Source of the DNA: Helicobacteraceae bacterium
GTDB taxonomy: Bacteria; Campylobacterota; Campylobacteria; Campylobacterales; Helicobacteraceae
Assembly: GCA_900770765.1 (NCBI GenBank)
Contig: CAAGLK010000025.1
Location: 2,388-66,387, forward strand
Reading direction: 5' to 3'
DNA: 64,000 nucleotides
The translations under genes and the position numbers were made by a program. Each line of letters opens with the position of its first letter. Position 1 is the stretch's first letter. The notes beneath the pieces are model-generated. The model was given only the letters and a program-made list of their open reading frames with translations, ran no database searches and was not told where the DNA came from. Below are positions 558 through 12,904 of this stretch, piece by piece.

Positions 558-2330
558 ATGCGAAGCGATATGATTAAAAAGGGTTACAAAAGAGCGCCAC
601 ATAGGAGTTTATTAAGGGCTACAGGGCTAAAGGATGAGGACTTTGATAAGCCCTTTATCGGCGTGGCAAATAGCTATATTGACATAATCCCCGGGCATTT
701 TTTCTTAAATAAATATGCTGAGATTGTCAAAGATGAGATTAGAAAGGCTGGGGGTGTGCCTTTTGAGTTTAACACTATCGGCGTAGATGATGGGATTGCT
801 ATGGGGCATAGTGGTATGCTCTACTCCTTGCCTAGCCGCGAGCTTATAGCTGACTGCATAGAATCTGTGATGAACGCACATTGTTTGGACGCAATGATAT
901 GCCTGCCAAACTGCGATAAAATCGTCCCGGGTATGCTTATGGGTGCGCTGCGTGTAAATGTGCCTGCGATTTTTGTAAGTGGCGGACCTATGAGGGCTGG
1001 GAAGTTAGAAGATGGAAGCATTTTAGACTTAAACTCTGCCTTTGAAGCCGTAGGAGCTTTTGAATCTGGCAAGATAGATGAGGAGCGATTGCATAAGATA
1101 GAGTGCGAAGCCTGCCCTAGCGGAGGAAGCTGTAGCGGGATGTTTACCGCGAATTCTATGAACACACTGTGTGAGGCTATGGGCGTGGCATTATCTGGTA
1201 ATGGCACGATTCTAGCCCTAACGCCTGAAAGAGAGGAACTCTTAAGAGCGGCGGCGAGGAGGATTGTGGAGATTGCTAAAAGTGAGGAGTTGAGCGAAAA
1301 GTTTAGATTCCGTAATATTTTGAATAAAAAGGCGGTGCATAATGCCTTTGTCGTGGATATGGCGATGGGCGGGAGCACAAATACGATTTTGCATATGCTA
1401 GCAATTGCTAAAGAAGCCGAAGTGGAGTTTGACCTAAAGGATATAAATAAAATCGCCCAAAATGTCGCGCATATCGCCAAAATCGCCCCGGCGTTGAGTT
1501 CTATACATATGGAGGACATAAACCGCGCGGGGGGTGTTAATGCGGTAATGAATGAGATTGCTAAAAGGCATTCAGTATTGAGCGATAAATCGGCGATTCT
1601 ACACTCGCCAACGAAAGCCAATGCGGATTCTGTAGAATCTAACCCCCAAGAGACAACGCTCTATTTAGACGCACTCACAATCACGGGCGAGACGCTAGGG
1701 GATAGAATCAAAGGGGCGGAAATTTTAGATTCTAATGTTATTAGAAAAAATGAAAACGCCTATTCACAAGCGGGCGGCTTGAAAATCCTCTATGGCAATT
1801 TAGCAAAAGAAGGCGCGGTGCTGAAAGTCGCCGCAGTGGCAGAATCTATGAAGGAATTTAGCGGCAAGGCGGTGTGCTTTAATAGCCAAGATGAAGCCAT
1901 AGCTGGAATCGCTGGAGGCAAGGTCAAGGCTGGAAGCGTGGTGGTTATCCGCTATGAGGGACCGCGTGGAGGTCCCGGAATGCAAGAAATGCTAAGCCCA
2001 ACCTCGCTCATTATGGGAATGGGCTTAGGGGAGAGCGTGGCGTTAATCACCGATGGGCGATTTAGCGGGGCAACTCGCGGGGCGTGTATCGGGCATATAA
2101 GCCCAGAGGCGGCTGAGGGCGGACTAATCGCGCTTATTGAAGATGGCGATACGATAGAGATTTCTGTCTCGCGTGGGAGCTTGGAGCTAAAGGTGGAAGC
2201 GCAGATTCTAGAATCTAGAAAGGCAAAATGGCAGCCGATAAAAAAAGAGATAAAAAGCAAATGGCTCAAACGCTACTCGCTTTTAGTTAGTAACGCCGCA
2301 AATGGCGCGGTGCTAAAGACGGAGATGTAG
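558..2330 (+). CDS. ilvD: Dihydroxy-acid dehydratase
   Basis: ORF 492..2330. IlvD-like N-terminus starts at [23 protein letters not shown], preceded by an AAGGAG RBS. The CPNCDK... and Cys-cluster regions are typical of IlvD/EDD family dehydratases. Confidence 0.9.
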
Positions 2331-2346
2331 GGGTGGGCTTTAAATA

Positions 2347-3402
2347 ATGAGAGTTTGTGATATTTTTTGCGGAGCGGGTGGGCTTAGCTTTGGCTTTGCA
2401 AAAGATAGGGCTTTTGAGCTTGTTTTTGCGCTTGACAATGATAAGAGTGCGACACTAAGCTATCAGGCAAATCACCCTAATACTAAGCTAATTTGCAAAG
2501 ATATAAATGAGCTTACCAATGCTGAGTTAAAAGAATTTGGCGTAATTGATATTTTGCTAGGTGGTCCTCCTTGTCAAAGCTACTCTACACTTGGCAAAAG
2601 GCAGATGGATGAAAGGGCGAATTTATTTAAAGAATATTTGCGAGTGTTAGAATCTTTCCAACCAAAAGCCTTTATCTTTGAAAATGTAGTTGGGCTTTTA
2701 TCTATGCAAAAGGGTGAGCTTTTTTCTTATATTTGTAAAAATTTTGAGAAACTAGGCTATAGAATCTATCATCAAGTGCTAAATGCAGCAGATTTTGGTG
2801 TGCCTCAAATTAGACAGAGAGTTATTATTGTGGGTATTAGGCAAGGTTTTAGTAAAAACTTTATGTTTCCACAGGCTACACATAAGGAATTTATCACGCT
2901 AGAGCAAGCATTGAATGATTTGCCACCTATTAAAAGTGGTGAAAATGGCAATCATTTAGGATATAAATATGAGCCTTGCAATGAATTTTTGCATTTTGTT
3001 AGGAAAAGTGAAATTTTAAGCGAGCATGAGAGTCCAAAAAATAATGAGAATCTAATTAAAATTATGCAACTTCTAAAAGATGGGCAGAGCAAGGATGATT
3101 TGCCCTTATGTGTGCGACCAAAATCAGGCTACACAAACACTTATGCCAAAATGTGGTGGCAAAGACCAGCCCCTACAATTACGCGAAACTTCGCCACCCC
3201 AAGCAGCTCAAGATGTATCCACCCTAGAGATTCTAGAGCCTTAAGTATAAGAGAGGGGGCGAGACTGCAGAGCTTCCCAGATGATTATGTATTTTGTGGT
3301 AATGCAAGTGATAAAAAGCTCCAAATAGGAAACGCCGTGCCACCGCTTGTAAGTATGGCTTTAGCTAAGGCAGTGAGAGATTATTTTAAAGGTATGATAT
3401 GA
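2347..3402 (+). CDS. DNA (cytosine-5)-methyltransferase (type II m5C MTase)
   Basis: Motif I FCGAGG, motif IV GGPPCQSYS, motif VI ENV, motif VIII QIRQR, motif X GNAVPPLV. TRD-like region with TYAKMWW...RCIHP. Confidence 0.9.
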   Translation: MRVCDIFCGAGGLSFGFAKDRAFELVFALDNDKSATLSYQANHPNTKLICKDINELTNAELKEFGVIDILLGGPPCQSYSTLGKRQMDERANLFKEYLRVLESFQPKAFIFENVVGLLSMQKGELFSYICKNFEKLGYRIYHQVLNAADFGVPQIRQRVIIVGIRQGFSKNFMFPQATHKEFITLEQALNDLPPIKSGENGNHLGYKYEPCNEFLHFVRKSEILSEHESPKNNENLIKIMQLLKDGQSKDDLPLCVRPKSGYTNTYAKMWWQRPAPTITRNFATPSSSRCIHPRDSRALSIREGARLQSFPDDYVFCGNASDKKLQIGNAVPPLVSMALAKAVRDYFKGMI

Positions 3403-4031
3403 AAGAGATTGAAGCAACAAATCTATATGGAAAAGGACACGAACAGCAAAAGAAAAGACCATATCTAGCAATTTATGAGGACGCAAATTATTTTCTTGCA
3501 TTTCCAAAAACAACAAAAAGCAAAGGGGGCAAAGAGTATCCATCTCACAAGAATTTAATACTCGATAATAAAATAGAAATAATGATAGATCAGCTATCAA
3601 TTATTCCAAGAATAAACACCAGCATAAAAGATTTGAGCGGTTGGCAAATTAAACTACAACAATTAAGTTGTGATAGCACCGACAAAAAAATAGTTTTTGA
3701 ACATTTTTGTAAATTTGTGATTATGCAAGATAAAGAAGCCTCGCAAACATGTCAAGTTCGGTTTGGAGATATTATAGAGTTAAAACACTCTAACCCTTTA
3801 TTAACCAACAAACAGCACTTTATTGTTTTGTCTAGTGGCATATTTCATCAATCAAGAATGTGCTGCATAGCTCCATACAATCAAGAAAGTGGCAATATAG
3901 ATTATGCTTTATTGCATTGTATAGACTATGAAGCAAGGAAAATAACAAAAATTGACAATAAGAAATGCCTCAAAAAAGATGAAATTATCAATGAAATAAA
4001 AATATTATTCTTGGGAAATCAAAATGTTTAG
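3399..4031 (+). CDS. Hypothetical protein, 210 aa, translationally coupled to the upstream m5C MTase. Candidate restriction/defense component.
   Basis: ATGA overlap with the MTase stop and long intact ORF. No recognisable family motif. Locally depleted of GAATC/GATTC relative to surrounding genes. Confidence 0.5.
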   Translation: MKEIEATNLYGKGHEQQKKRPYLAIYEDANYFLAFPKTTKSKGGKEYPSHKNLILDNKIEIMIDQLSIIPRINTSIKDLSGWQIKLQQLSCDSTDKKIVFEHFCKFVIMQDKEASQTCQVRFGDIIELKHSNPLLTNKQHFIVLSSGIFHQSRMCCIAPYNQESGNIDYALLHCIDYEARKITKIDNKKCLKKDEIINEIKILFLGNQNV

Positions 4032-4761
4032 CGCAGATGATTTTAAGCAATATCGCAATGCTTTAGGCTTTAGTTCAAAACAAAATTTTAAAGAATTTTT
4101 AAGCGCAAAGGACATAAAGCCAGAAATTGACTTTACATATATAGATTCCTTAAATAAGCGGCTTTGCGAGATTTTTGAGCGCATAAATAAAATCTATTAT
4201 AAATCTTGCGATATAGAATCTTTTTTGCAAAATACGCTTTTTAATGCGTTTAATTTAATGAAAAATAATGCGATCTTAGAAAAGCTAAATAATCAAGGCA
4301 GACGCAAAGAAGAGGTGTATTTTGGCTGGATGCGCGGATTTTTAATTTGTGAATATTTTAAAGAGGCTATTTGTGATATTTTTAGCATTGATTTATCGCA
4401 GATTTTGCACATTGGAGGGGATGATTTTTCTTCGCTAGATACTTTTAAAAGAACACCTAAAGCAGATTTGCAAATACAAAACATAAGAATAGAAATGCAA
4501 AGTGGGTTTCAAGGGATTAATGATATTAAAGAGCATAAAGTGCGTGAGGCAAAACGCAATTTTTTAGAGCAAAAAATCAAAACTTTAGTGATACATTTTG
4601 ATATTTTTAATGGGCAGGTGGCTTTTGTGGATATTTCAAATATCGCAGATGATGATTTACATTGGATTACAAGGCAGCAAATGGAGGGACAAAGTGTGTT
4701 TAATATAGAGCAAAATTATTTTAAATGGAAATTACAAGTTAAGCCACCTTGTTTTGCATAA
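4024..4761 (+). CDS. Hypothetical protein, 245 aa, translationally coupled to the previous ORF (8-nt overlap)
   Basis: Intact ORF overlapping the previous stop. No recognisable motifs. GAATC/GATTC-poor. Confidence 0.5.
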   Translation: MFSADDFKQYRNALGFSSKQNFKEFLSAKDIKPEIDFTYIDSLNKRLCEIFERINKIYYKSCDIESFLQNTLFNAFNLMKNNAILEKLNNQGRRKEEVYFGWMRGFLICEYFKEAICDIFSIDLSQILHIGGDDFSSLDTFKRTPKADLQIQNIRIEMQSGFQGINDIKEHKVREAKRNFLEQKIKTLVIHFDIFNGQVAFVDISNIADDDLHWITRQQMEGQSVFNIEQNYFKWKLQVKPPCFA

Positions 4762-4820
4762 TATAGTTAAATAATGTTGATTTAAACATAGCTATTAGAA
4801 ATTTAGATTTAAGGATTTTA

Positions 4821-6047
4821 GTGGATTTTACGCAAAATAAAAAATATAAATTTGGTATTTTATTGGCGGCTACTAGTGATAGTATTTTTACACTTGGGAC
4901 TATGATTGCAAATATTTATGCGATTATGGGGGAGTGTGTGGATGTGTTTTATATAGTTAGCGATAAGATTCTACCTAGTGATAAAGTTGCTTTACAAAAA
5001 GTGGCAAGAGATATTGAAATAAAGTTTATACCATTTACAAAAGAAATTTTTGAAAATAATTTTATAGAGTTTGCAAATGCAAATAAAGAGGAATTAAGAG
5101 AGTTTTTAAAAGCACAAAATGCGTTTTTACGCCGCTGGTCTTATATGGTTTATGCTTGTTTTGAAGCGTTTAAATATTTAGGGGAGTGTGAGAGGATTTT
5201 ATATTTAGATTTTGATATTTTGCTGCTTCGCACATTATCGCATTTAAGTAGAGTAAAAGAGGGCTTTGCACTGCATAAAGGGCGGACGAAAATCTCGCAT
5301 AATGCGCCGCTTTATGAAGGTGAGTTTAGAAAATATCCTGTTTATAGAAGTGGCATAATTTTATTTACACAAGCGCTTGCTAATCCGCTAGAATCTTTAA
5401 AAAGCTGTTATAAAAATAGCTTTAAATATAAGATGATAAGCGACCAAGTGGCAATTTCCCTTTTAATCTATGAAAATAAAATAAAAGTAAAAAATTTATC
5501 ATATAAATACACAGGGCTTCCGCATTTTAGAAGCAATGATAATCCTTATTTAATCCATGCTTATGGTAGTAATAATAGATTTTGGAATAATAGGCTTTGT
5601 AATAGGCTTTTCCCTAGCTGGAATCTTTATTATAAAGAGTGGTTGGAATCCGGCGGAAGTGCTTATAAGGGCGGCTTTGTAGCAAATACTACAAACTCTT
5701 ATGAACGCTTTAGATACCATTTAAGCTATAAATTAGGCTATGCGATTGTTAAAAATCATACTTTTCCTAAGGCTTTAAAGCTGTTATTTTTACTGCCTTA
5801 TATCACGCTTAAGCATAAAATACAGATTCTAAGATATAAAAATTTAATAAAGAAAAAGCCCTTTTTAAAACTGCCGCCTCTAGTAACTTATGATGACTAT
5901 AATCGTGGAATCTTAGAAAAAAATAGTATATCTTATAGGCTTGGAAGTGCGCTGCTAGAAGTCTTTAAAGGTGGTAATATTTTTAGTAATTTTATGCGAT
6001 TTTGTAGGCAAAGCAAGGCTATTTATAAAAATAAGCTAGAATCCTAA
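4821..6047 (+). CDS. Putative glycosyltransferase (GT8-like; DxD-type motif YLDFDILL)
   Basis: 408-aa ORF. YLDFDIL and SDQVAISLL resemble GT8 DxD and DQD regions. The C-terminal half is unassigned. Confidence 0.45.
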   Translation: MDFTQNKKYKFGILLAATSDSIFTLGTMIANIYAIMGECVDVFYIVSDKILPSDKVALQKVARDIEIKFIPFTKEIFENNFIEFANANKEELREFLKAQNAFLRRWSYMVYACFEAFKYLGECERILYLDFDILLLRTLSHLSRVKEGFALHKGRTKISHNAPLYEGEFRKYPVYRSGIILFTQALANPLESLKSCYKNSFKYKMISDQVAISLLIYENKIKVKNLSYKYTGLPHFRSNDNPYLIHAYGSNNRFWNNRLCNRLFPSWNLYYKEWLESGGSAYKGGFVANTTNSYERFRYHLSYKLGYAIVKNHTFPKALKLLFLLPYITLKHKIQILRYKNLIKKKPFLKLPPLVTYDDYNRGILEKNSISYRLGSALLEVFKGGNIFSNFMRFCRQSKAIYKNKLES

Positions 6048-6811
6048 AACTGCTCGTATAGCAATTTTGCTGCCATTATAAATGAGATTCCAACTACAAG
6101 TGGCTTTATGATTTTTTTACCATAGCTAATAGCTGCTCTTGCACCAAGATTTGCCCCTATAAATTGCCCAACTGCCATAAGTAGCCCAATGCTAAAAAGT
6201 ATATGCCCACCAAGTGCGAAAAATACTAAAGAGGCAAGGTTTGTAGAAAAGTTATATAGCTTTGCTTGCCCTAAACTTTGCGTTAAATTAAATGCTCCAA
6301 AGAGAAGTAAGCTAAGCATAAAAAATGAGCCAGTGCCAGGCCCAAAGAATCCATCATAAAATGAAATAGCGGCTAAAGATAAGGTTAGGGCGGCTAGATT
6401 GCGTCTTTTTTCTTGTAAATCTTGTGTTATTTTAGGTGCAAATAAAAAATAGATTCCAAATATTAAAATTAAAAATGGCAAGAATTTATTTAAAAGAGAA
6501 TTATCTACAAACTGCACTAAAATCGTCCCAAGCGATGAAAATATAAAAGCTAAAATAGCATAAGGTGCGGCGGCTTTTAGCGGAATATAGCCTTTTTTGT
6601 AAAATTGATAAGTGGCTGAGAAGCTACCAAAAGAGCTTTGAAGTTTATTTGTCGCTAGTGCTTCAATAGGTGGGATTCCACTTAATAAAAGCGCTGGGAT
6701 TGTAATCATCCCCCCACCGCCTGCAATTGCATCTATAAAGCCAGCTACAAATGCCGCAAACACTAAAAAAAGTAAAATATTAAAATCTAAGTTTAAAAAA
6801 ATATCTTGCAA
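6044..6811 (-). CDS. TSUP (TauE/SafE, DUF81) family membrane transporter
   Basis: 255 aa, multi-pass hydrophobic, internal duplication with GGGxxxxP-type motifs (AGGGGMITIPALL; LGGHILF). Confidence 0.75.
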   Translation of the reverse strand: MQDIFLNLDFNILLFLVFAAFVAGFIDAIAGGGGMITIPALLLSGIPPIEALATNKLQSSFGSFSATYQFYKKGYIPLKAAAPYAILAFIFSSLGTILVQFVDNSLLNKFLPFLILIFGIYFLFAPKITQDLQEKRRNLAALTLSLAAISFYDGFFGPGTGSFFMLSLLLFGAFNLTQSLGQAKLYNFSTNLASLVFFALGGHILFSIGLLMAVGQFIGANLGARAAISYGKKIIKPLVVGISFIMAAKLLYEQF

Positions 6812-9146: not shown

Positions 9147-10175
9147 ATGAAAAATGAGGCGATTTTAAGAGTTGAAGAAGCTATAAAGGCTACAAAAAAT
9201 GGTGAAATGATAATTGTTATGGATGATGAGGATAGAGAAAATGAGGGGGATTTAGTGCTAGCTGGAATCTTTAGCACACCAGAAAAAATCAATTTTTTAG
9301 CACAAGAGGCAAGAGGGCTAATTTGTGTATCAATTACAAAAGAGCTTGCAAATAAACTTGACTTACCGCCAATGGTATCGCAAAATAGCTCAAATCATGA
9401 AACAGCTTTTACAATTTCAATTGACGCAAAAGAAGCAAAAACAGGAATCTCTGCTTATGAGCGGGATTTAACAATTCAGCTTATGTGTAAAAGCGGGGCG
9501 GCTCCTAGCGACTTTGTGCGGCCTGGACATATATTTCCCCTTATTGCAAAAGAGGGCGGTGTGCTAGAGAGAAGTGGGCATACAGAAGCTAGCGTGGATT
9601 TATGCCGCTTGGCTGGGTTAAAGCCTATTAGCGTAATTTGTGAGATTATGAGAGAAGATGGGCAAATGCCAGGGCGTGGTGATAAATTTTTAATAGAATT
9701 TGCAAAAAAGCATAATCTAAAGACGCTTTATGTGTCTGATTTAATAGAATATAGATTGCAATATGAAAATTTAATTAGCAAAATTTCTTGCGTGGATTCT
9801 AGCTTTTTAGGAGCTTGTGTTAAGCGGCTTGAATTTTGCGACCATTTAAATAGAGTGCATATTGTCTTTGCCTTTGGGGAGGCTAGGATTCCGCTTGTGA
9901 AATTTCACATTATTAAAAAAGATTTAGAATTATTAGAAAATGAAGTTTTATTTAATTCTTTAATGGAATCTATTAATTTACTTAAAAAAAATGGTGGATA
10001 TTTAATATTTTTAAGCGTGTCAAATAATAATGATATTAAGGGATTGGGTATTGGGGCGCAAATTTTAAAAGATTTAGGTGTAAATGATTTTAGGCTTTTG
10101 AGTCAATCAAAAATGCAAGATAGTGAGTATAGCGCGCTAAAAGGCTTTAATTTACGCATTGTGGAATCTGTATAA
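9147..10175 (+). CDS. ribBA: 3,4-dihydroxy-2-butanone-4-phosphate synthase (RibB domain with a C-terminal GTP-cyclohydrolase-II-like extension, RibBA-type)
   Basis: N-terminal VEEAIKA...IVMDDEDRENEGDL, RPGHIFPL and ERSGHTEASVDL are conserved DHBP synthase motifs. The C-terminal half is degenerate. Confidence 0.85.
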   Translation: MKNEAILRVEEAIKATKNGEMIIVMDDEDRENEGDLVLAGIFSTPEKINFLAQEARGLICVSITKELANKLDLPPMVSQNSSNHETAFTISIDAKEAKTGISAYERDLTIQLMCKSGAAPSDFVRPGHIFPLIAKEGGVLERSGHTEASVDLCRLAGLKPISVICEIMREDGQMPGRGDKFLIEFAKKHNLKTLYVSDLIEYRLQYENLISKISCVDSSFLGACVKRLEFCDHLNRVHIVFAFGEARIPLVKFHIIKKDLELLENEVLFNSLMESINLLKKNGGYLIFLSVSNNNDIKGLGIGAQILKDLGVNDFRLLSQSKMQDSEYSALKGFNLRIVESV

Positions 10176-10187
10176 ACTATAATGTTG

Positions 10188-10204
10188 TGGAATAAAAATT
10201 GCTT
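10188..10204 (+). promoter_or_regulatory. Sigma-54 (RpoN) promoter, TGGAAT-N5-TTGCTT (GG-N10-GC)
   Basis: TGGAATAAAAATTTGCTT-type -24/-12 element lies 37 nt upstream of the flgL ATG. rpoN is encoded in this same window. Confidence 0.6.
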
Positions 10205-10240
10205 ATAATCCTTTAAAATTTCCTTATTAAAGGGTAGAAA

Positions 10241-12904
10241 ATGCGTATTGGCACACATTCTAGATATACAATGCTGCAGTATAATCAAAACAAAACACAA
10301 AATTCTCTAAATAATGTCCTAACTCAAATGAACGGCTTAAAGATACAATATGGCTACCAGGATTCTAGCGTATTTAATAAAACTCTAGCGCTTGACTTTA
10401 ATGTAACAACACTAACACAAAGTAAAGAAATAGCATCAAACGCACTTACTTTCACGCGCCACACGGACACTGCCTTAAGTGAGCTTTCAAAAAGTATGGA
10501 TAATTTTAAAACAAAGCTAGTGCAAGGGGCAAATGATATTCATAGCGAAACTTCACGCCTTGCTATTGCAAAAGATTTAAAAGCTATTAGAGACCATTTT
10601 TTATCAATTGCAAATACTTCTATTGGCGGTGAGTATATCTTTAGCGGAAGTGCCACTACTACAAAGCCTTTTGGTGCAAATGGTGCTTATAATGGAAATA
10701 ATCAAGTATTAAACGCATTGCTTGGGTCAAATAATGAAGTGGCTTATAATATTACAGGTGCTGAGCTATTTTTTGGCTCTGATAATGATACAAATCGCAT
10801 AATTACTACAAATATAGGTAAATTTAATCAAAGCGAGTTAAATCCCGCGATTATGGATAAAAGCCACCCAACAGGGCAAGGGACGGAAGTGTATATTAAA
10901 GAAAGCGATACTTTAAGGGATTTAGTAGGCGATAATGATAGCGATACGACAAATAACCCTCCAGAAGTGTTTTATATCACAGGAAGAAAGCCAGATGGAA
11001 CTGCTTTTAAATCAAAATTTGAAATGGATATTAATTACACAGATGAAAAGCAAGCCGCAACAGTGGCGGATTTATTAGAAAAAATAGGCAAGGAATTTGG
11101 CAATACTGAGACTAGTAAGGTTGTAGATGTTAGCCTTAATGCGTGGGGACAAATTGAAATAAAAGATTTAAGCGGCGGACGCTCAAATATAGAATTTAGT
11201 ATGATTTCAAGCAGTTACAAGGACCCAAATAACGACCCAAACGCACAAAATCCGCTTCAAGGTGCCGATGGCGTTGGTGTGCTTGATATTGATGTGTTAT
11301 TAAATAGTGGTGTTAAGGTTAATTCCTATGTGCAAAGTCCATTTTTAGGCACTTTTGCTAGCCCTAGCATTACTTCGGTAGAAAATGATTATGACCATAG
11401 GCTACATACGATTCCAACTTCTTTTAGAACACATACTAATGAAGTAGCAAAAACAACTACGCTTCTAAGCGATATTTTTCCAGAAGGTGTTACGCAAATA
11501 GAGCTAAGTGGGACAAGAGGAAATGATGCAGATAAGAATCCGCAAAATCAAGCAATAGCGGCACAAACTTTTAATATCACTGCCACTTCTACGGTGCAAG
11601 ATTTAATGAATTCTATTTCTAATCTTTATGCGGGGAATGGGCAAAATGTTGAAGTGGAATTTGATAGCATAAGCGGCAAAATTACTATAAAAGATAATAA
11701 TGTAAGTCAAACAAATCCACCAGATAGAAACCCAGATGACTTGCCCTTTGATGGTGAAAGTTCTTTAAGTTTAACGCTTACCACACAAGATGCTAATGGT
11801 GCGGCTATAAATGGATTCCGCCATGATTATAGTGTGGAGTTTGATAGGGTTAGCTTTAGCAGAGAAGGGGGGACGCTTACTTCAAATGTAGCTCAAATTG
11901 TAAGGGATACAAATGAAATTGCAACAATGAATACAAAGCTAAGCGAAGTGGCTGGAGCTGGATTAAATGGGCATACTTATAATTTTGAAGTTAAAGATGT
12001 AAATGGAATCGCAATTAATGGACGCATTGAATTTAGAGATGCTGGAAGTGTGTTTATTATAGATTCTCCAGCACAAATTAATGGGGTGGATATTGATGGG
12101 ATTGAGATTCCAATACTGCAAGCTAATGGTAATCCACCGCAAGTCTCAGGCGAACCTACAAGTGCGGATAATGTTACCTATAAGCAACTTAGCGATACTT
12201 TAGGTATGATATTAAATCTAAGTAATTCTACGCCGGCTAATTTAACTGCTATTACAAATAATGGTGCTGGTAATGCTAACTTTAACACTCCAGCAAATAA
12301 ACTAGCCTATGAGGAATTATTAAAAGGTGCTAGTTATAGTGTTAGCGTTAAGTTAAATGTGGATGGGGAGCTTGAGGTGAAAGATTTAAGTAAAGTTCCT
12401 ACACAAATGGAATTATCGCTATATGATTCTACAAGCGATTTATACGCACTTAATGCAAATGGGCAAATAGCAGGGCAGCGACCGGCTTTGACATTTCAAT
12501 CAAATAGTGCAGTGGTAGCAGATGACCCACATGTGAATTTCTTTAAACAAATTGATGAAATGATTGAAGCGCTAGAGGCGGGGACTTACCGCGCTGGTGG
12601 TGTGGATAATTATAGCGATGCAATGCGGAATCCTGGAATCCAAAACGCCCTTTTACTATTTGACCACTTAAGCGACCATGTGGAAAAGGCACATACAAAA
12701 AATGGCGCACAAGGAAATGCTTTTACTTATTCAATTGAACGCACAGAGACGCTTATAACGCAAGTTAAGACGCTAAGGAGTGAGACTATTGATACTGACT
12801 TTGCCGAGGCTTATTTGCAGTTTTCAACGCTTAGTTTAAATTATCAAGCGATGCTTTCAAGCATTGGTAAAATTTCACAATTATCGCTTGTTAATTATTT
12901 GTAG
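10241..12904 (+). CDS. flgL: Flagellar hook-associated protein 3 (FlgL, long epsilonproteobacterial form)
   Basis: 887 aa. N-terminal flagellin-N-like heptads (LKIQYGYQDSSVFNKTL...) and C-terminal flagellin-C-like helix (LQFSTLSLNYQAMLSSIGKISQLSLVNYL). Confidence 0.8.
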   Translation: MRIGTHSRYTMLQYNQNKTQNSLNNVLTQMNGLKIQYGYQDSSVFNKTLALDFNVTTLTQSKEIASNALTFTRHTDTALSELSKSMDNFKTKLVQGANDIHSETSRLAIAKDLKAIRDHFLSIANTSIGGEYIFSGSATTTKPFGANGAYNGNNQVLNALLGSNNEVAYNITGAELFFGSDNDTNRIITTNIGKFNQSELNPAIMDKSHPTGQGTEVYIKESDTLRDLVGDNDSDTTNNPPEVFYITGRKPDGTAFKSKFEMDINYTDEKQAATVADLLEKIGKEFGNTETSKVVDVSLNAWGQIEIKDLSGGRSNIEFSMISSSYKDPNNDPNAQNPLQGADGVGVLDIDVLLNSGVKVNSYVQSPFLGTFASPSITSVENDYDHRLHTIPTSFRTHTNEVAKTTTLLSDIFPEGVTQIELSGTRGNDADKNPQNQAIAAQTFNITATSTVQDLMNSISNLYAGNGQNVEVEFDSISGKITIKDNNVSQTNPPDRNPDDLPFDGESSLSLTLTTQDANGAAINGFRHDYSVEFDRVSFSREGGTLTSNVAQIVRDTNEIATMNTKLSEVAGAGLNGHTYNFEVKDVNGIAINGRIEFRDAGSVFIIDSPAQINGVDIDGIEIPILQANGNPPQVSGEPTSADNVTYKQLSDTLGMILNLSNSTPANLTAITNNGAGNANFNTPANKLAYEELLKGASYSVSVKLNVDGELEVKDLSKVPTQMELSLYDSTSDLYALNANGQIAGQRPALTFQSNSAVVADDPHVNFFKQIDEMIEALEAGTYRAGGVDNYSDAMRNPGIQNALLLFDHLSDHVEKAHTKNGAQGNAFTYSIERTETLITQVKTLRSETIDTDFAEAYLQFSTLSLNYQAMLSSIGKISQLSLVNYL

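Follow-up and report, generated by a model that had tools for sequence, protein, structure and literature searches.

A 64,000-nucleotide stretch from a Helicobacteraceae bacterium (NCBI GenBank assembly GCA_900770765.1, contig CAAGLK010000025.1, positions 2,388 to 66,387 of the forward strand; hereafter the window) carries three intact, co-oriented genes on its + strand, set between the host gene ilvD and a GT8-like glycosyltransferase gene. An open reading frame (ORF) scan places a C5-cytosine DNA methyltransferase gene, M (351 aa), at 2347-3402, an accessory gene, ORF2 (210 aa), at 3399-4031, and a restriction endonuclease gene, ORF3 or R (245 aa), at 4024-4761. We favour, with moderate confidence, the explanation that these genes form an acquired type IIP restriction-modification (R-M) operon specific for ACGT, in which ORF2, a MazF-like protein without an antitoxin, is embedded as an RNase or defence layer. 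The R-M core is ordinary and known; the new part is the rare, antitoxin-less insert with two domains and a MazF fold. A first-pass annotation of this DNA had reported a complete methyltransferase followed by two ORFs of 210 and 245 aa, overlapping by 4 and 8 nt, between ilvD and a glycosyltransferase-like gene. The coordinates and the Pfam matches of the flanking genes agree with that layout, and the account given there of the two downstream ORFs is revised below.

The methyltransferase is complete, as first proposed. M covers the whole of Pfam profile PF00145 (DNA_methylase; positions 1-322 of 324, 2.5e-75) and also matches NCBIfam dcm (3e-70) and PADLOC MTase_II (1e-110). Six motifs were located in it: FCGAGG (aa 7), GGPPCQ (aa 72), ENV (aa 112), QIRQR (aa 154), SIREGARLQSFP (aa 300) and GNAVPP (aa 328). 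Judged by these conserved catalytic motifs, M is a complete type II C5-cytosine (m5C) methyltransferase.

ORF3 had been described, together with ORF2, as an unknown protein, which no longer holds. Its homologs number more than 1000, are spread over Campylobacter, Helicobacter, Bacteroidota, Neisseriaceae and Methanococcus aeolicus, and in many cases carry the NCBI name 'restriction endonuclease'. ORF3 matches no Pfam, NCBIfam or PADLOC model, it has no useful match by sequence in the PDB, and none was found in a plasmid collection. An AlphaFold (AF2) model built with 35 homologs has a pLDDT of 91.4 and a pTM of 0.88, and in Foldseek searches its C-terminal core resembles PD-(D/E)xK nucleases, with Hjc, RecU/PrfA, the SPARDA nuclease, HincII and DpnI as the best PDB matches (probability up to 0.96). 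In the alignment D133, D148, E157-x-Q159, K169 and K172 are invariant and D134 is nearly so; D133/D134, D148, E157-x-Q159 and K169/K172 are the likely candidate catalytic set. Homology, fold and context together show ORF3 to be a restriction endonuclease with a PD-(D/E)xK-fold core. The earlier statement that neither downstream ORF carries a recognisable nuclease signature is thus correct by eye and fails once tools are applied, since ORF2 gives a near-threshold PemK/MazF match and ORF3 falls in a 'restriction endonuclease' family with a PD-(D/E)xK model.

The genomic neighbourhoods of ORF3 homologs were sampled at one genome per species, giving 80 loci from many phyla. An M ortholog, 40-85% identical, adjoins the ORF3 homolog in every one of them (80/80). 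The gene order is M then R in Campylobacterota, including H. pylori, and R then M in most other phyla. Of the 80 loci, one alone carries ORF2 within the M-R pair, and in another a relative of ORF2 lies upstream. In C. coli no gene separates M from R, and the pair is flanked by hisB and hisH; in M. aeolicus R precedes M and there is no ORF2. Because ORF3 homologs pair with an M ortholog, almost always without ORF2, ORF3 is taken to be the cognate nuclease of M and to need no ORF2. M and ORF3 are shown by homology, fold and context to represent a widespread two-gene type IIP R-M family, of which ORF2 is no regular component.

The probable recognition site of this family is ACGT. The window contains no ACGT at all against 47.5 expected, and the 80 host loci pooled contain 156 against 1552 expected, an observed/expected ratio of 0.10. 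In most of these loci, which come from unrelated phyla, ACGT is the most depleted 4-mer palindrome, the other palindromes lying at 0.41-0.97. The site is also missing inside the cassettes themselves (0 against 8.7 expected in those with ORF2, and 1 against 20.6 in those without). A second line of evidence comes from H. pylori, where M is 67% and R 57% identical to their counterparts, and where the gene order at the ortholog locus is TypA, a D12 adenine methyltransferase, a 204-aa ORF, the m5C methyltransferase, R, a catalase-like gene and an outer-membrane protein gene. We take TypA and the catalase-like gene to be hp0480 and hp0485 of the 26695 annotation. This order matches that of hp0481 (an adenine methyltransferase), hp0482 (hypothetical) and, next to them, hp0483 (PMC2375058). 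The hp0483 gene, which is frameshifted in strain 26695, and jhp0435 correspond to M.Hpy99XI, a type IIP m5C methylase with the site A(m5C)GT (PMC3936762), a specificity also given elsewhere (PMC10423294). A depletion that tracks the methylase fits, because the loss of ACGT in H. pylori has been put down mainly to deamination of methylated cytosine (PMC10423294). On these comparisons the M-R pair probably belongs to the Hpy99XI/HpyCH4IV/MaeII (ACGT) family. A family member is present in M. aeolicus, from which MaeII was presumably isolated, and this serves as a lead only. Strong indirect evidence thus points to ACGT as the site at which M would modify the cytosine in the host's own DNA and R would cut where that methylation is missing.

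The 204-aa H. pylori gene upstream of the M ortholog, at the position of hp0482, was considered as an analogue of ORF2 and proved unrelated. Several other palindromes are avoided in the window (observed/expected): GATC 2/163, GTAC 3/58, TCGA 5/76, GGCC 19/112, CGCG 40/153, CCGG 16/49, GCGC 128/355 and CATG 47/130. Palindrome avoidance of this breadth implies a host lineage with many R-M systems.

The fold of ORF2 is that of the MazF/PemK proteins. Its match to Pfam PemK/MazF (PF02452) covers aa 6-71 with an E-value of 2e-4 and a score of 21.8 bits, just below the gathering threshold of 23.1, and the same model is matched by 17 of the 17 aligned members of the ORF2 family, the best at 3.7e-9. 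The AlphaFold model has a pLDDT of 81.6 and a pTM of 0.82, the loop at aa 77-91 being poorly modelled, and all 50 of the best PDB matches listed by Foldseek are MazF, Kid, MoxT or PemK-type toxins. Direct searches by sequence gave no useful PDB match, and no match was found in PADLOC or NCBIfam. The window proteins had no match in PHROGs, in which two relatives gave weak MazF-like matches. At the level of fold, then, ORF2 is shown to be a MazF/PemK protein.

The MazF-like features are concentrated in an N-terminal domain of aa 1-110 (3399-3728, + strand), which is supported by the Pfam match, the profile alignment and the invariant residues. When the profile of this domain is aligned with S. 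aureus MazF by HMMER, its G-H-E-Q falls on G-S-E-Q, P-S-H on P-T-H, R20-P21 on the R-P motif and T39 on the threonine of the I-T motif. Ten residues (G13, E15, Q16, R20, P21, T38, T39, S49, H50 and Q65) are invariant in 17 sequences that reach down to 32% identity, and H14, P48 and D64 are nearly invariant in the same alignment. Arg25 and Thr48 of the Bacillus MazF, the counterparts of R20 and T39, are catalytic (PMC7354611). We read D64-Q65 as the E/D-Q motif of MazF, in a segment that HMMER placed seven residues differently.

The C-terminal domain, aa 118-210 (3750-4028, + strand), is defined by the secondary structure of the model, where its pLDDT is about 90. Its elements follow the order strand, strand, short helix, strands and long C-terminal helix, as in MazF, and it has no catalytic arginine or threonine. 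The C-terminal half matches the PDB and Pfam at chance level only, and hhalign gives a probability of 0.2% for the two halves of ORF2 aligned with each other, that is, no internal repeat signal. A 'tandem MazF' is accordingly shown for the N-terminal half only, because the C-terminal half carries no sequence signal. From the model, ORF2 may be a single-chain MazF pseudo-dimer in which a degenerate C-terminal domain stands in for the second subunit. As its most likely activity we regard sequence-specific cleavage of RNA at a single composite active site, with the degenerate domain in the role of the second protomer; in our judgement the odds of this are about even. A literature search on tandem, fused or pseudo-dimeric MazF found nothing relevant, and one on MazF combined with restriction-modification returned general reviews only. 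The earlier suggestion of an undescribed methyltransferase-associated toxin module is therefore half right: the MazF/PemK fold is well known, and a two-domain architecture without antitoxin in this operon position was not found in the literature search.

No antitoxin-like or conserved small ORF was found beside ORF2 in any genomic context examined. In the window its neighbours are M upstream and R downstream, with no MazE/PemI gene, and the neighbours of solitary copies are mutually unrelated, among them ilvD, Rrf2, a pseudouridine synthase, a 16S rRNA gene and an FkbM-like gene. Tandem Repeats Finder, applied to positions 2200-4900 of the window and to the region upstream of the solitary H. 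felis copy, detected trivial repeats of about 2-3 copies and no antitoxin RNA array. An active protein of this type might escape self-toxicity through auto-inhibition by its linker, very narrow RNA specificity or low activity. The flexible, acidic-aromatic linker at aa 77-91 (DLSGW or DLSDF) could be such an auto-inhibitor, by analogy with the tail of MazE.

The junctions of ORF2 with its neighbours are exact. M and ORF2 overlap by the 4 nt ATGA (3399-3402, + strand), which contains the M stop and the ORF2 start, and the same ATGA overlap occurs in three other loci (L022, L003 and L009; L numbers denote the loci and contigs compared). ORF2 and R overlap by the 8 nt ATGTTTAG (4024-4031, + strand). 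The origin of this second overlap is apparent from H. labetoulli (L023, 8948-10744), where the junction reads ...TATTTTAAAGGATTTTAA|ATGTTTAAC... and the M stop is followed directly by the ATG of R, with no ORF2; by comparison, the ORF2 stop codon TAG in the window is built from codons 2-3 of R, just as the ORF2 ATG overlaps the M stop. These junctions show that ORF2 was inserted precisely and seamlessly between the M stop and the R start in one Helicobacter/Campylobacter clade, and the overlaps likewise show ORF2 as a gene translationally coupled to both M and R.

Cassettes of the form M-ORF2-R are found downstream of ilvD in the window, in a twin contig from a metagenome-assembled genome (L001) and in contig L008, with gltB and gltD on either side in C. 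upsaliensis and related contigs (L003, L009-L012), and beside a guaA-like gene in H. zhangjianzhongii and one metagenome contig. In neighbour-joining trees of M and of R, all of these cassettes form one clade, the window copy branching first. The H. labetoulli pair is nested in this clade, and the simplest reading of the trees would be one gain of ORF2 followed by one clean loss. In H. labetoulli ORF2 has apparently gone by clean deletion, or the cassette was swapped by recombination. Synonymous divergence (dS) is 0.75-0.87 for ORF2 and 0.80-1.07 for M and R, and the ratio of nonsynonymous to synonymous divergence (dN/dS) is 0.2-0.3 for ORF2 and about 0.1 for M and R. Because dS is equal across the three genes and dN/dS of ORF2 is 0.2-0.3, ORF2 is considered a real, constrained gene that has travelled with M and R since its insertion.

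The ORF2 family is small. A search of 5.8 billion clusters returned 17 homologs, and a profile search of 1.84 billion representatives returned 31 clusters at E<=1e-3, about 10 of them full length. All members with a named source come from Helicobacter or Campylobacter. There was no match in the plasmid collection, a phage collection or IMG/VR, and a scan of JGI metagenomes yielded one short contig with a solitary copy. A second ORF2 subfamily, 35-36% identical, goes with a different M/R clade (L024/L025). In one locus (L026) a second-subfamily ORF2 lies upstream of M-R across a 200-nt gap, and in L104-L106 it is intact, with a damaged M on one side and only the last 53 codons of R on the other (L104, 174-1855). 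Ahead of the L104 copy lies an AT-rich spacer containing elements that resemble a promoter and a ribosome-binding site (TAGAAT, AAGGA). The M of L104 has decayed: no GGPPCQ motif was found in it, and the first 27 residues of the match have lost their resemblance to other M proteins. In L008, R is broken into fragments of 137, 90 and 147 aa (5626-6769), and M and ORF2 are intact.

Solitary copies of ORF2 are found in five settings: in H. suis (L007); in H. felis (L013, 1-6865), where the copy directly follows a 16S rRNA gene and precedes two genes of the GmrSD type (type IV restriction); in contig L014, directly after ilvD; after an Rrf2 regulator gene; and between a pseudouridine synthase gene and a ybaK-like gene. 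The gene ilvD is a recurrent neighbour, as ilvD-M-ORF2-R in L008, ilvD-M-R in L023 and ilvD-ORF2 in L014. Because relatives persist alone, and in cassettes in which R, or both M and R, have decayed, R is not needed for ORF2 to function, and the family probably does without M as well. Its repeated occurrence against the same R-M family suggests a link that is non-random and not obligatory.

Taken together, these observations lead us to the following proposal. M would mark ACGT in host DNA by methylating its cytosine, leaving R to cleave the unmethylated sites of incoming DNA. ORF2 entered between M and R and has since been co-inherited under purifying selection. Its N-terminal domain keeps the catalytic arginine and threonine and the loop residues that line the RNA groove of MazF, and its C-terminal domain would probably replace the second MazF subunit; the protein would most likely cleave single-stranded RNA, sequence-specifically and at one composite site, without a dedicated protein antitoxin. 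In this way ORF2 might add an RNA-level toxic layer to DNA restriction, acting by abortive infection or as an addiction module that strengthens post-segregational killing. This last step is the weakest of the proposal, and we put it forward only tentatively.

Several points weigh against this proposal. The activities of M, ORF2 and R are all predicted. Depletion of ACGT is common across Campylobacterota generally, and the depletion evidence bears on the family and not on this copy, because any host ACGT methylase can deplete ACGT through deamination of 5-methylcytosine. The Pfam score of ORF2 is sub-threshold, and its Foldseek matches are not assigned to one particular domain. The MazF-like character of the C-terminal domain is read solely from the order of secondary-structure elements in a single model, whose underlying alignment is shallow (14 sequences), and sequence methods detect nothing. 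An active MazF without an antitoxin should be toxic. H. labetoulli, nested in the ORF2-bearing clade, lacks ORF2 and has full-length, abutting M and R; because it lost ORF2 and kept both, ORF2 is dispensable for the R-M system. Finally, five ORF2 lineages are solitary among housekeeping genes, so a functional link with restriction is not required.

The strongest competitor, although in our view rather unlikely, is that ORF2 is a selfish or hitchhiking orphan toxin-like gene, functionally unrelated to restriction, which shares integration hot spots and defence islands with this R-M family in Campylobacterota. The five solitary lineages, the H. felis copy beside GmrSD genes, the occurrence of ilvD-ORF2, ilvD-M-R and ilvD-M-ORF2-R, and the clean loss in H. 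labetoulli with M and R left abutting and full-length are all what such a gene would give. However, a family of only 31 clusters has two subfamilies, 35% identical, placed against the same R-M family in three arrangements, and the insertion is codon-exact, shares start and stop signals with its neighbours and has been kept through a dS of about 0.8-1.0. A regulatory role is less likely still. ORF2 could be an analogue of a C protein that binds or cleaves the operon mRNA, or a translation spacer that lowers and delays R relative to M in a new host. It lies exactly between M and R with overlapping starts and stops, such that translation of R depends on that of ORF2, Campylobacterota M-R cassettes have no C gene, and MazF-fold proteins bind single-stranded RNA. 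Nevertheless, cassettes without ORF2 are common, with M and R full-length where examined (C. coli, H. labetoulli), and ORF2 relatives survive on their own and in cassettes that have decayed. Nor is the coupling to R conserved across the family, given the 200-nt gap downstream of ORF2 in L026 and the promoter-like spacer of L104, and the invariant residues of catalytic type favour an enzyme over a spacer.

The absence of an antitoxin would be accounted for if ORF2 were an antitoxin-free, single-chain MazF-type RNase whose RNA target, most obviously ACGU, has been purged from the host genome, so that it would be harmless to host mRNAs and would cut the transcripts of incoming phages and plasmids. 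This would amount to RNA-level restriction in which self and non-self are told apart by motif avoidance, and not by an antitoxin or a modification, and we consider it very unlikely. ACGT is indeed absent over tens of kb in ORF2-bearing loci, except in H. felis, which has 6 sites against 12 expected (3 in the rRNA gene and 3 in neighbouring genes); H. suis has 1 against 9 expected. The reading is weakened since 16S rRNA contains ACGU and the H. felis locus has its six ACGT, and further weakened by a search of ORF2-bearing cassettes for sense-strand k-mer avoidance, as would mark an RNase site, which returned R-M palindromes only. The proposal of the first-pass annotation that ORF2 and ORF3 are subunits of a split or heterodimeric restriction endonuclease now seems exceedingly improbable. 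The two genes are tightly overlapped, co-oriented and co-diverged, as subunits would be, but in about 78 of the 80 loci the ORF3 homolog accompanies M in the absence of ORF2, as it does in C. coli, H. pylori and M. aeolicus, and ORF2 relatives exist without M or R and outlive the decay of R (L008, L104). H. labetoulli has lost ORF2 with M and R full-length and abutting, and the fold of ORF2 belongs to a superfamily of RNases and gyrase poisons and not to a DNA nuclease or DNA-recognition module. Hardly credible, lastly, is a role as a substitute for Vsr in repairing the T:G mismatches that arise when 5-methylcytosine is deaminated. Deamination drives the loss of ACGT in H. pylori (PMC10423294), and ORF2 lies directly downstream of an m5C methylase gene, overlaps its end and is kept with M after the decay of R in L008. 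Against this, ORF2 has no Vsr domain in Pfam or NCBIfam at E<=1 and no PD-(D/E)xK signature, its fold is that of MazF/Kid, and genomes that carry it still lack ACGT sites, with no sign of protection from loss by deamination. MazF catalysis uses the 2'-OH of RNA, so DNA nicking is not expected.

That the cassette was acquired, as first suspected from its scarcity of GAATC/GATTC pentamers, is upheld. The window holds 424 copies (6.6/kb, or 2.3-2.7 times an order-3 Markov expectation) and ilvD reaches 7.6/kb, against 2 copies in the 1363 nt of ORF2 and ORF3, which confirms the count originally made by eye. Only 1% of sliding 1363-nt windows have two sites or fewer, nearly all of them overlapping the cassette, and the whole cassette differs from the rest of the window with a Poisson P of 0.003. 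The pentamers are abundant (4.4-7.9/kb) in one Helicobacter group, comprising the window, L022, L023, L025, L008 and L014, and scarce elsewhere (0.3-1.5/kb), at about 1 in Campylobacter and 0.7-0.8 in H. pylori, H. heilmannii and H. labacensis. Each of the five GAATC-rich hosts tested shows a drop, from 4.9-8.4/kb in the flanks to 2.0-3.3/kb in the cassette. Because the cassette is GAATC-poor in all five, a foreign origin is supported, and this fits the multiple insertion sites, since the same cassette occupies at least three unrelated chromosomal sites across Helicobacter and Campylobacter species. These observations support the reading that the cassette is a horizontally acquired three-gene operon. 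Composition is in agreement only as regards the pentamers: the G+C content of ORF2 and ORF3 is 30.8% against a window mean of 35% (sd 3.7%), the 9th percentile, which is not significant, and G+C was rejected as a sign of foreign origin. As a guess, the GAATC enrichment of the host could be an uptake-type or methylation-linked signal. The related pentamers GAGTC/GACTC stand at 0.64 times expectation in the window. The only other GAATC/GATTC-poor stretch, at about 10000-11800, coincides with an 887-aa ORF (10241-12904) that has a Flagellin_N domain in the twin contig L001.

On both sides the cassette borders on host genes. Upstream, ilvD (492-2330, + strand; Pfam ILVD_EDD, 1e-124) ends 16 nt before M, and downstream the GT8-like gene (4821-6047, + strand; Pfam Glyco_transf_8, 6e-9) follows the end of R after 59 nt. 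A promoter and terminator scan of 2100-5000 gave counts that were not above those of shuffled sequence; it found no terminator between the genes, which fits read-through from ilvD and is not evidence for it. Direct or inverted repeats flanking the cassette, as a mark of a mobile element, were sought, and only short matches at chance level were seen. Other cassettes are packed into biosynthetic operons that leave hardly any intergenic DNA, namely the hisB-hisH interval of C. coli (L017-L019, 2942-4750) and the gltB-gltD interval of C. upsaliensis and its relatives, which suggests that the cassette may rely on transcription of the host operon. Just upstream of ilvD begins a 1320-aa MmeI-like type IIG/IIL R-M fusion gene (window 1 to about 470, - strand), whose domains in L001 (1113-5075) are MmeI_Mtase, Eco57I and TaqI_C by Pfam; since it starts there, the ACGT cassette is one gene away from another R-M system. 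Over the five genes compared (ilvD, M, ORF2, R and the GT8-like gene), the twin contig L001 does not differ from the window. At L001 8626-9363, which equals 4024-4761 of the window, the R frame is intact and 100% identical, yet no gene is on record, probably an annotation gap.

The consequences differ between the two parts of the cassette. For the R-M core, comparing ACGT depletion points to the probable specificity of a family that has more than 1000 members and lacks both a Pfam model and a solved structure. For ORF2, if the proposal is true, it would be a natural single-chain MazF with one active and one degenerate domain, an illustration of how a dimeric toxin can turn into an enzyme with one active site, and its codon-overlapped position would make a compact unit in which DNA-level and RNA-level defence, or addiction, are expressed as one. 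A MazF-like protein without an antitoxin also raises the question of how its activity is checked, or whether it is toxic at all. Should ORF2 be an inert passenger, the finding would shrink to an improvement of the annotation.

Among known systems, the closest are the Hpy99XI, HpyCH4IV and MaeII R-M systems, with which the cassette shares an m5C methyltransferase and a nuclease of about 250 aa, adjacent and co-oriented, in hosts purged of ACGT. The likeness to HpyCH4IV and MaeII is drawn from the inferred ACGT site and not from the sequence of R.HpyCH4IV or R.MaeII. Unlike those systems, the cassette has a third gene, ORF2, between M and R, and unlike the H. pylori hp0483/jhp0435 locus it lies downstream of ilvD. 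ORF2 resembles the MazF, PemK and Kid toxins in its fold and in the R-P and I-T motif residues of its N-terminal domain, but it is a single chain of 210 aa with two unequal domains, whereas those toxins are homodimers of subunits of about 110 aa, and it has no antitoxin gene in any context, being either embedded in an R-M operon or solitary. The type III toxins ToxN, AbiQ and CptN are more distant, with lower structural scores than MazF, no detected sequence similarity to ORF2, and no tandem-repeat antitoxin RNA beside ORF2 in the window or at the solitary H. felis locus. In its position, as a small gene that overlaps the 3' end of an m5C methylase gene and is co-transcribed with it, ORF2 recalls the vsr gene of dcm-vsr and the genes for C proteins; it differs from these in having neither a Vsr nuclease nor a helix-turn-helix domain, and instead has another fold and, likely, an RNA substrate.

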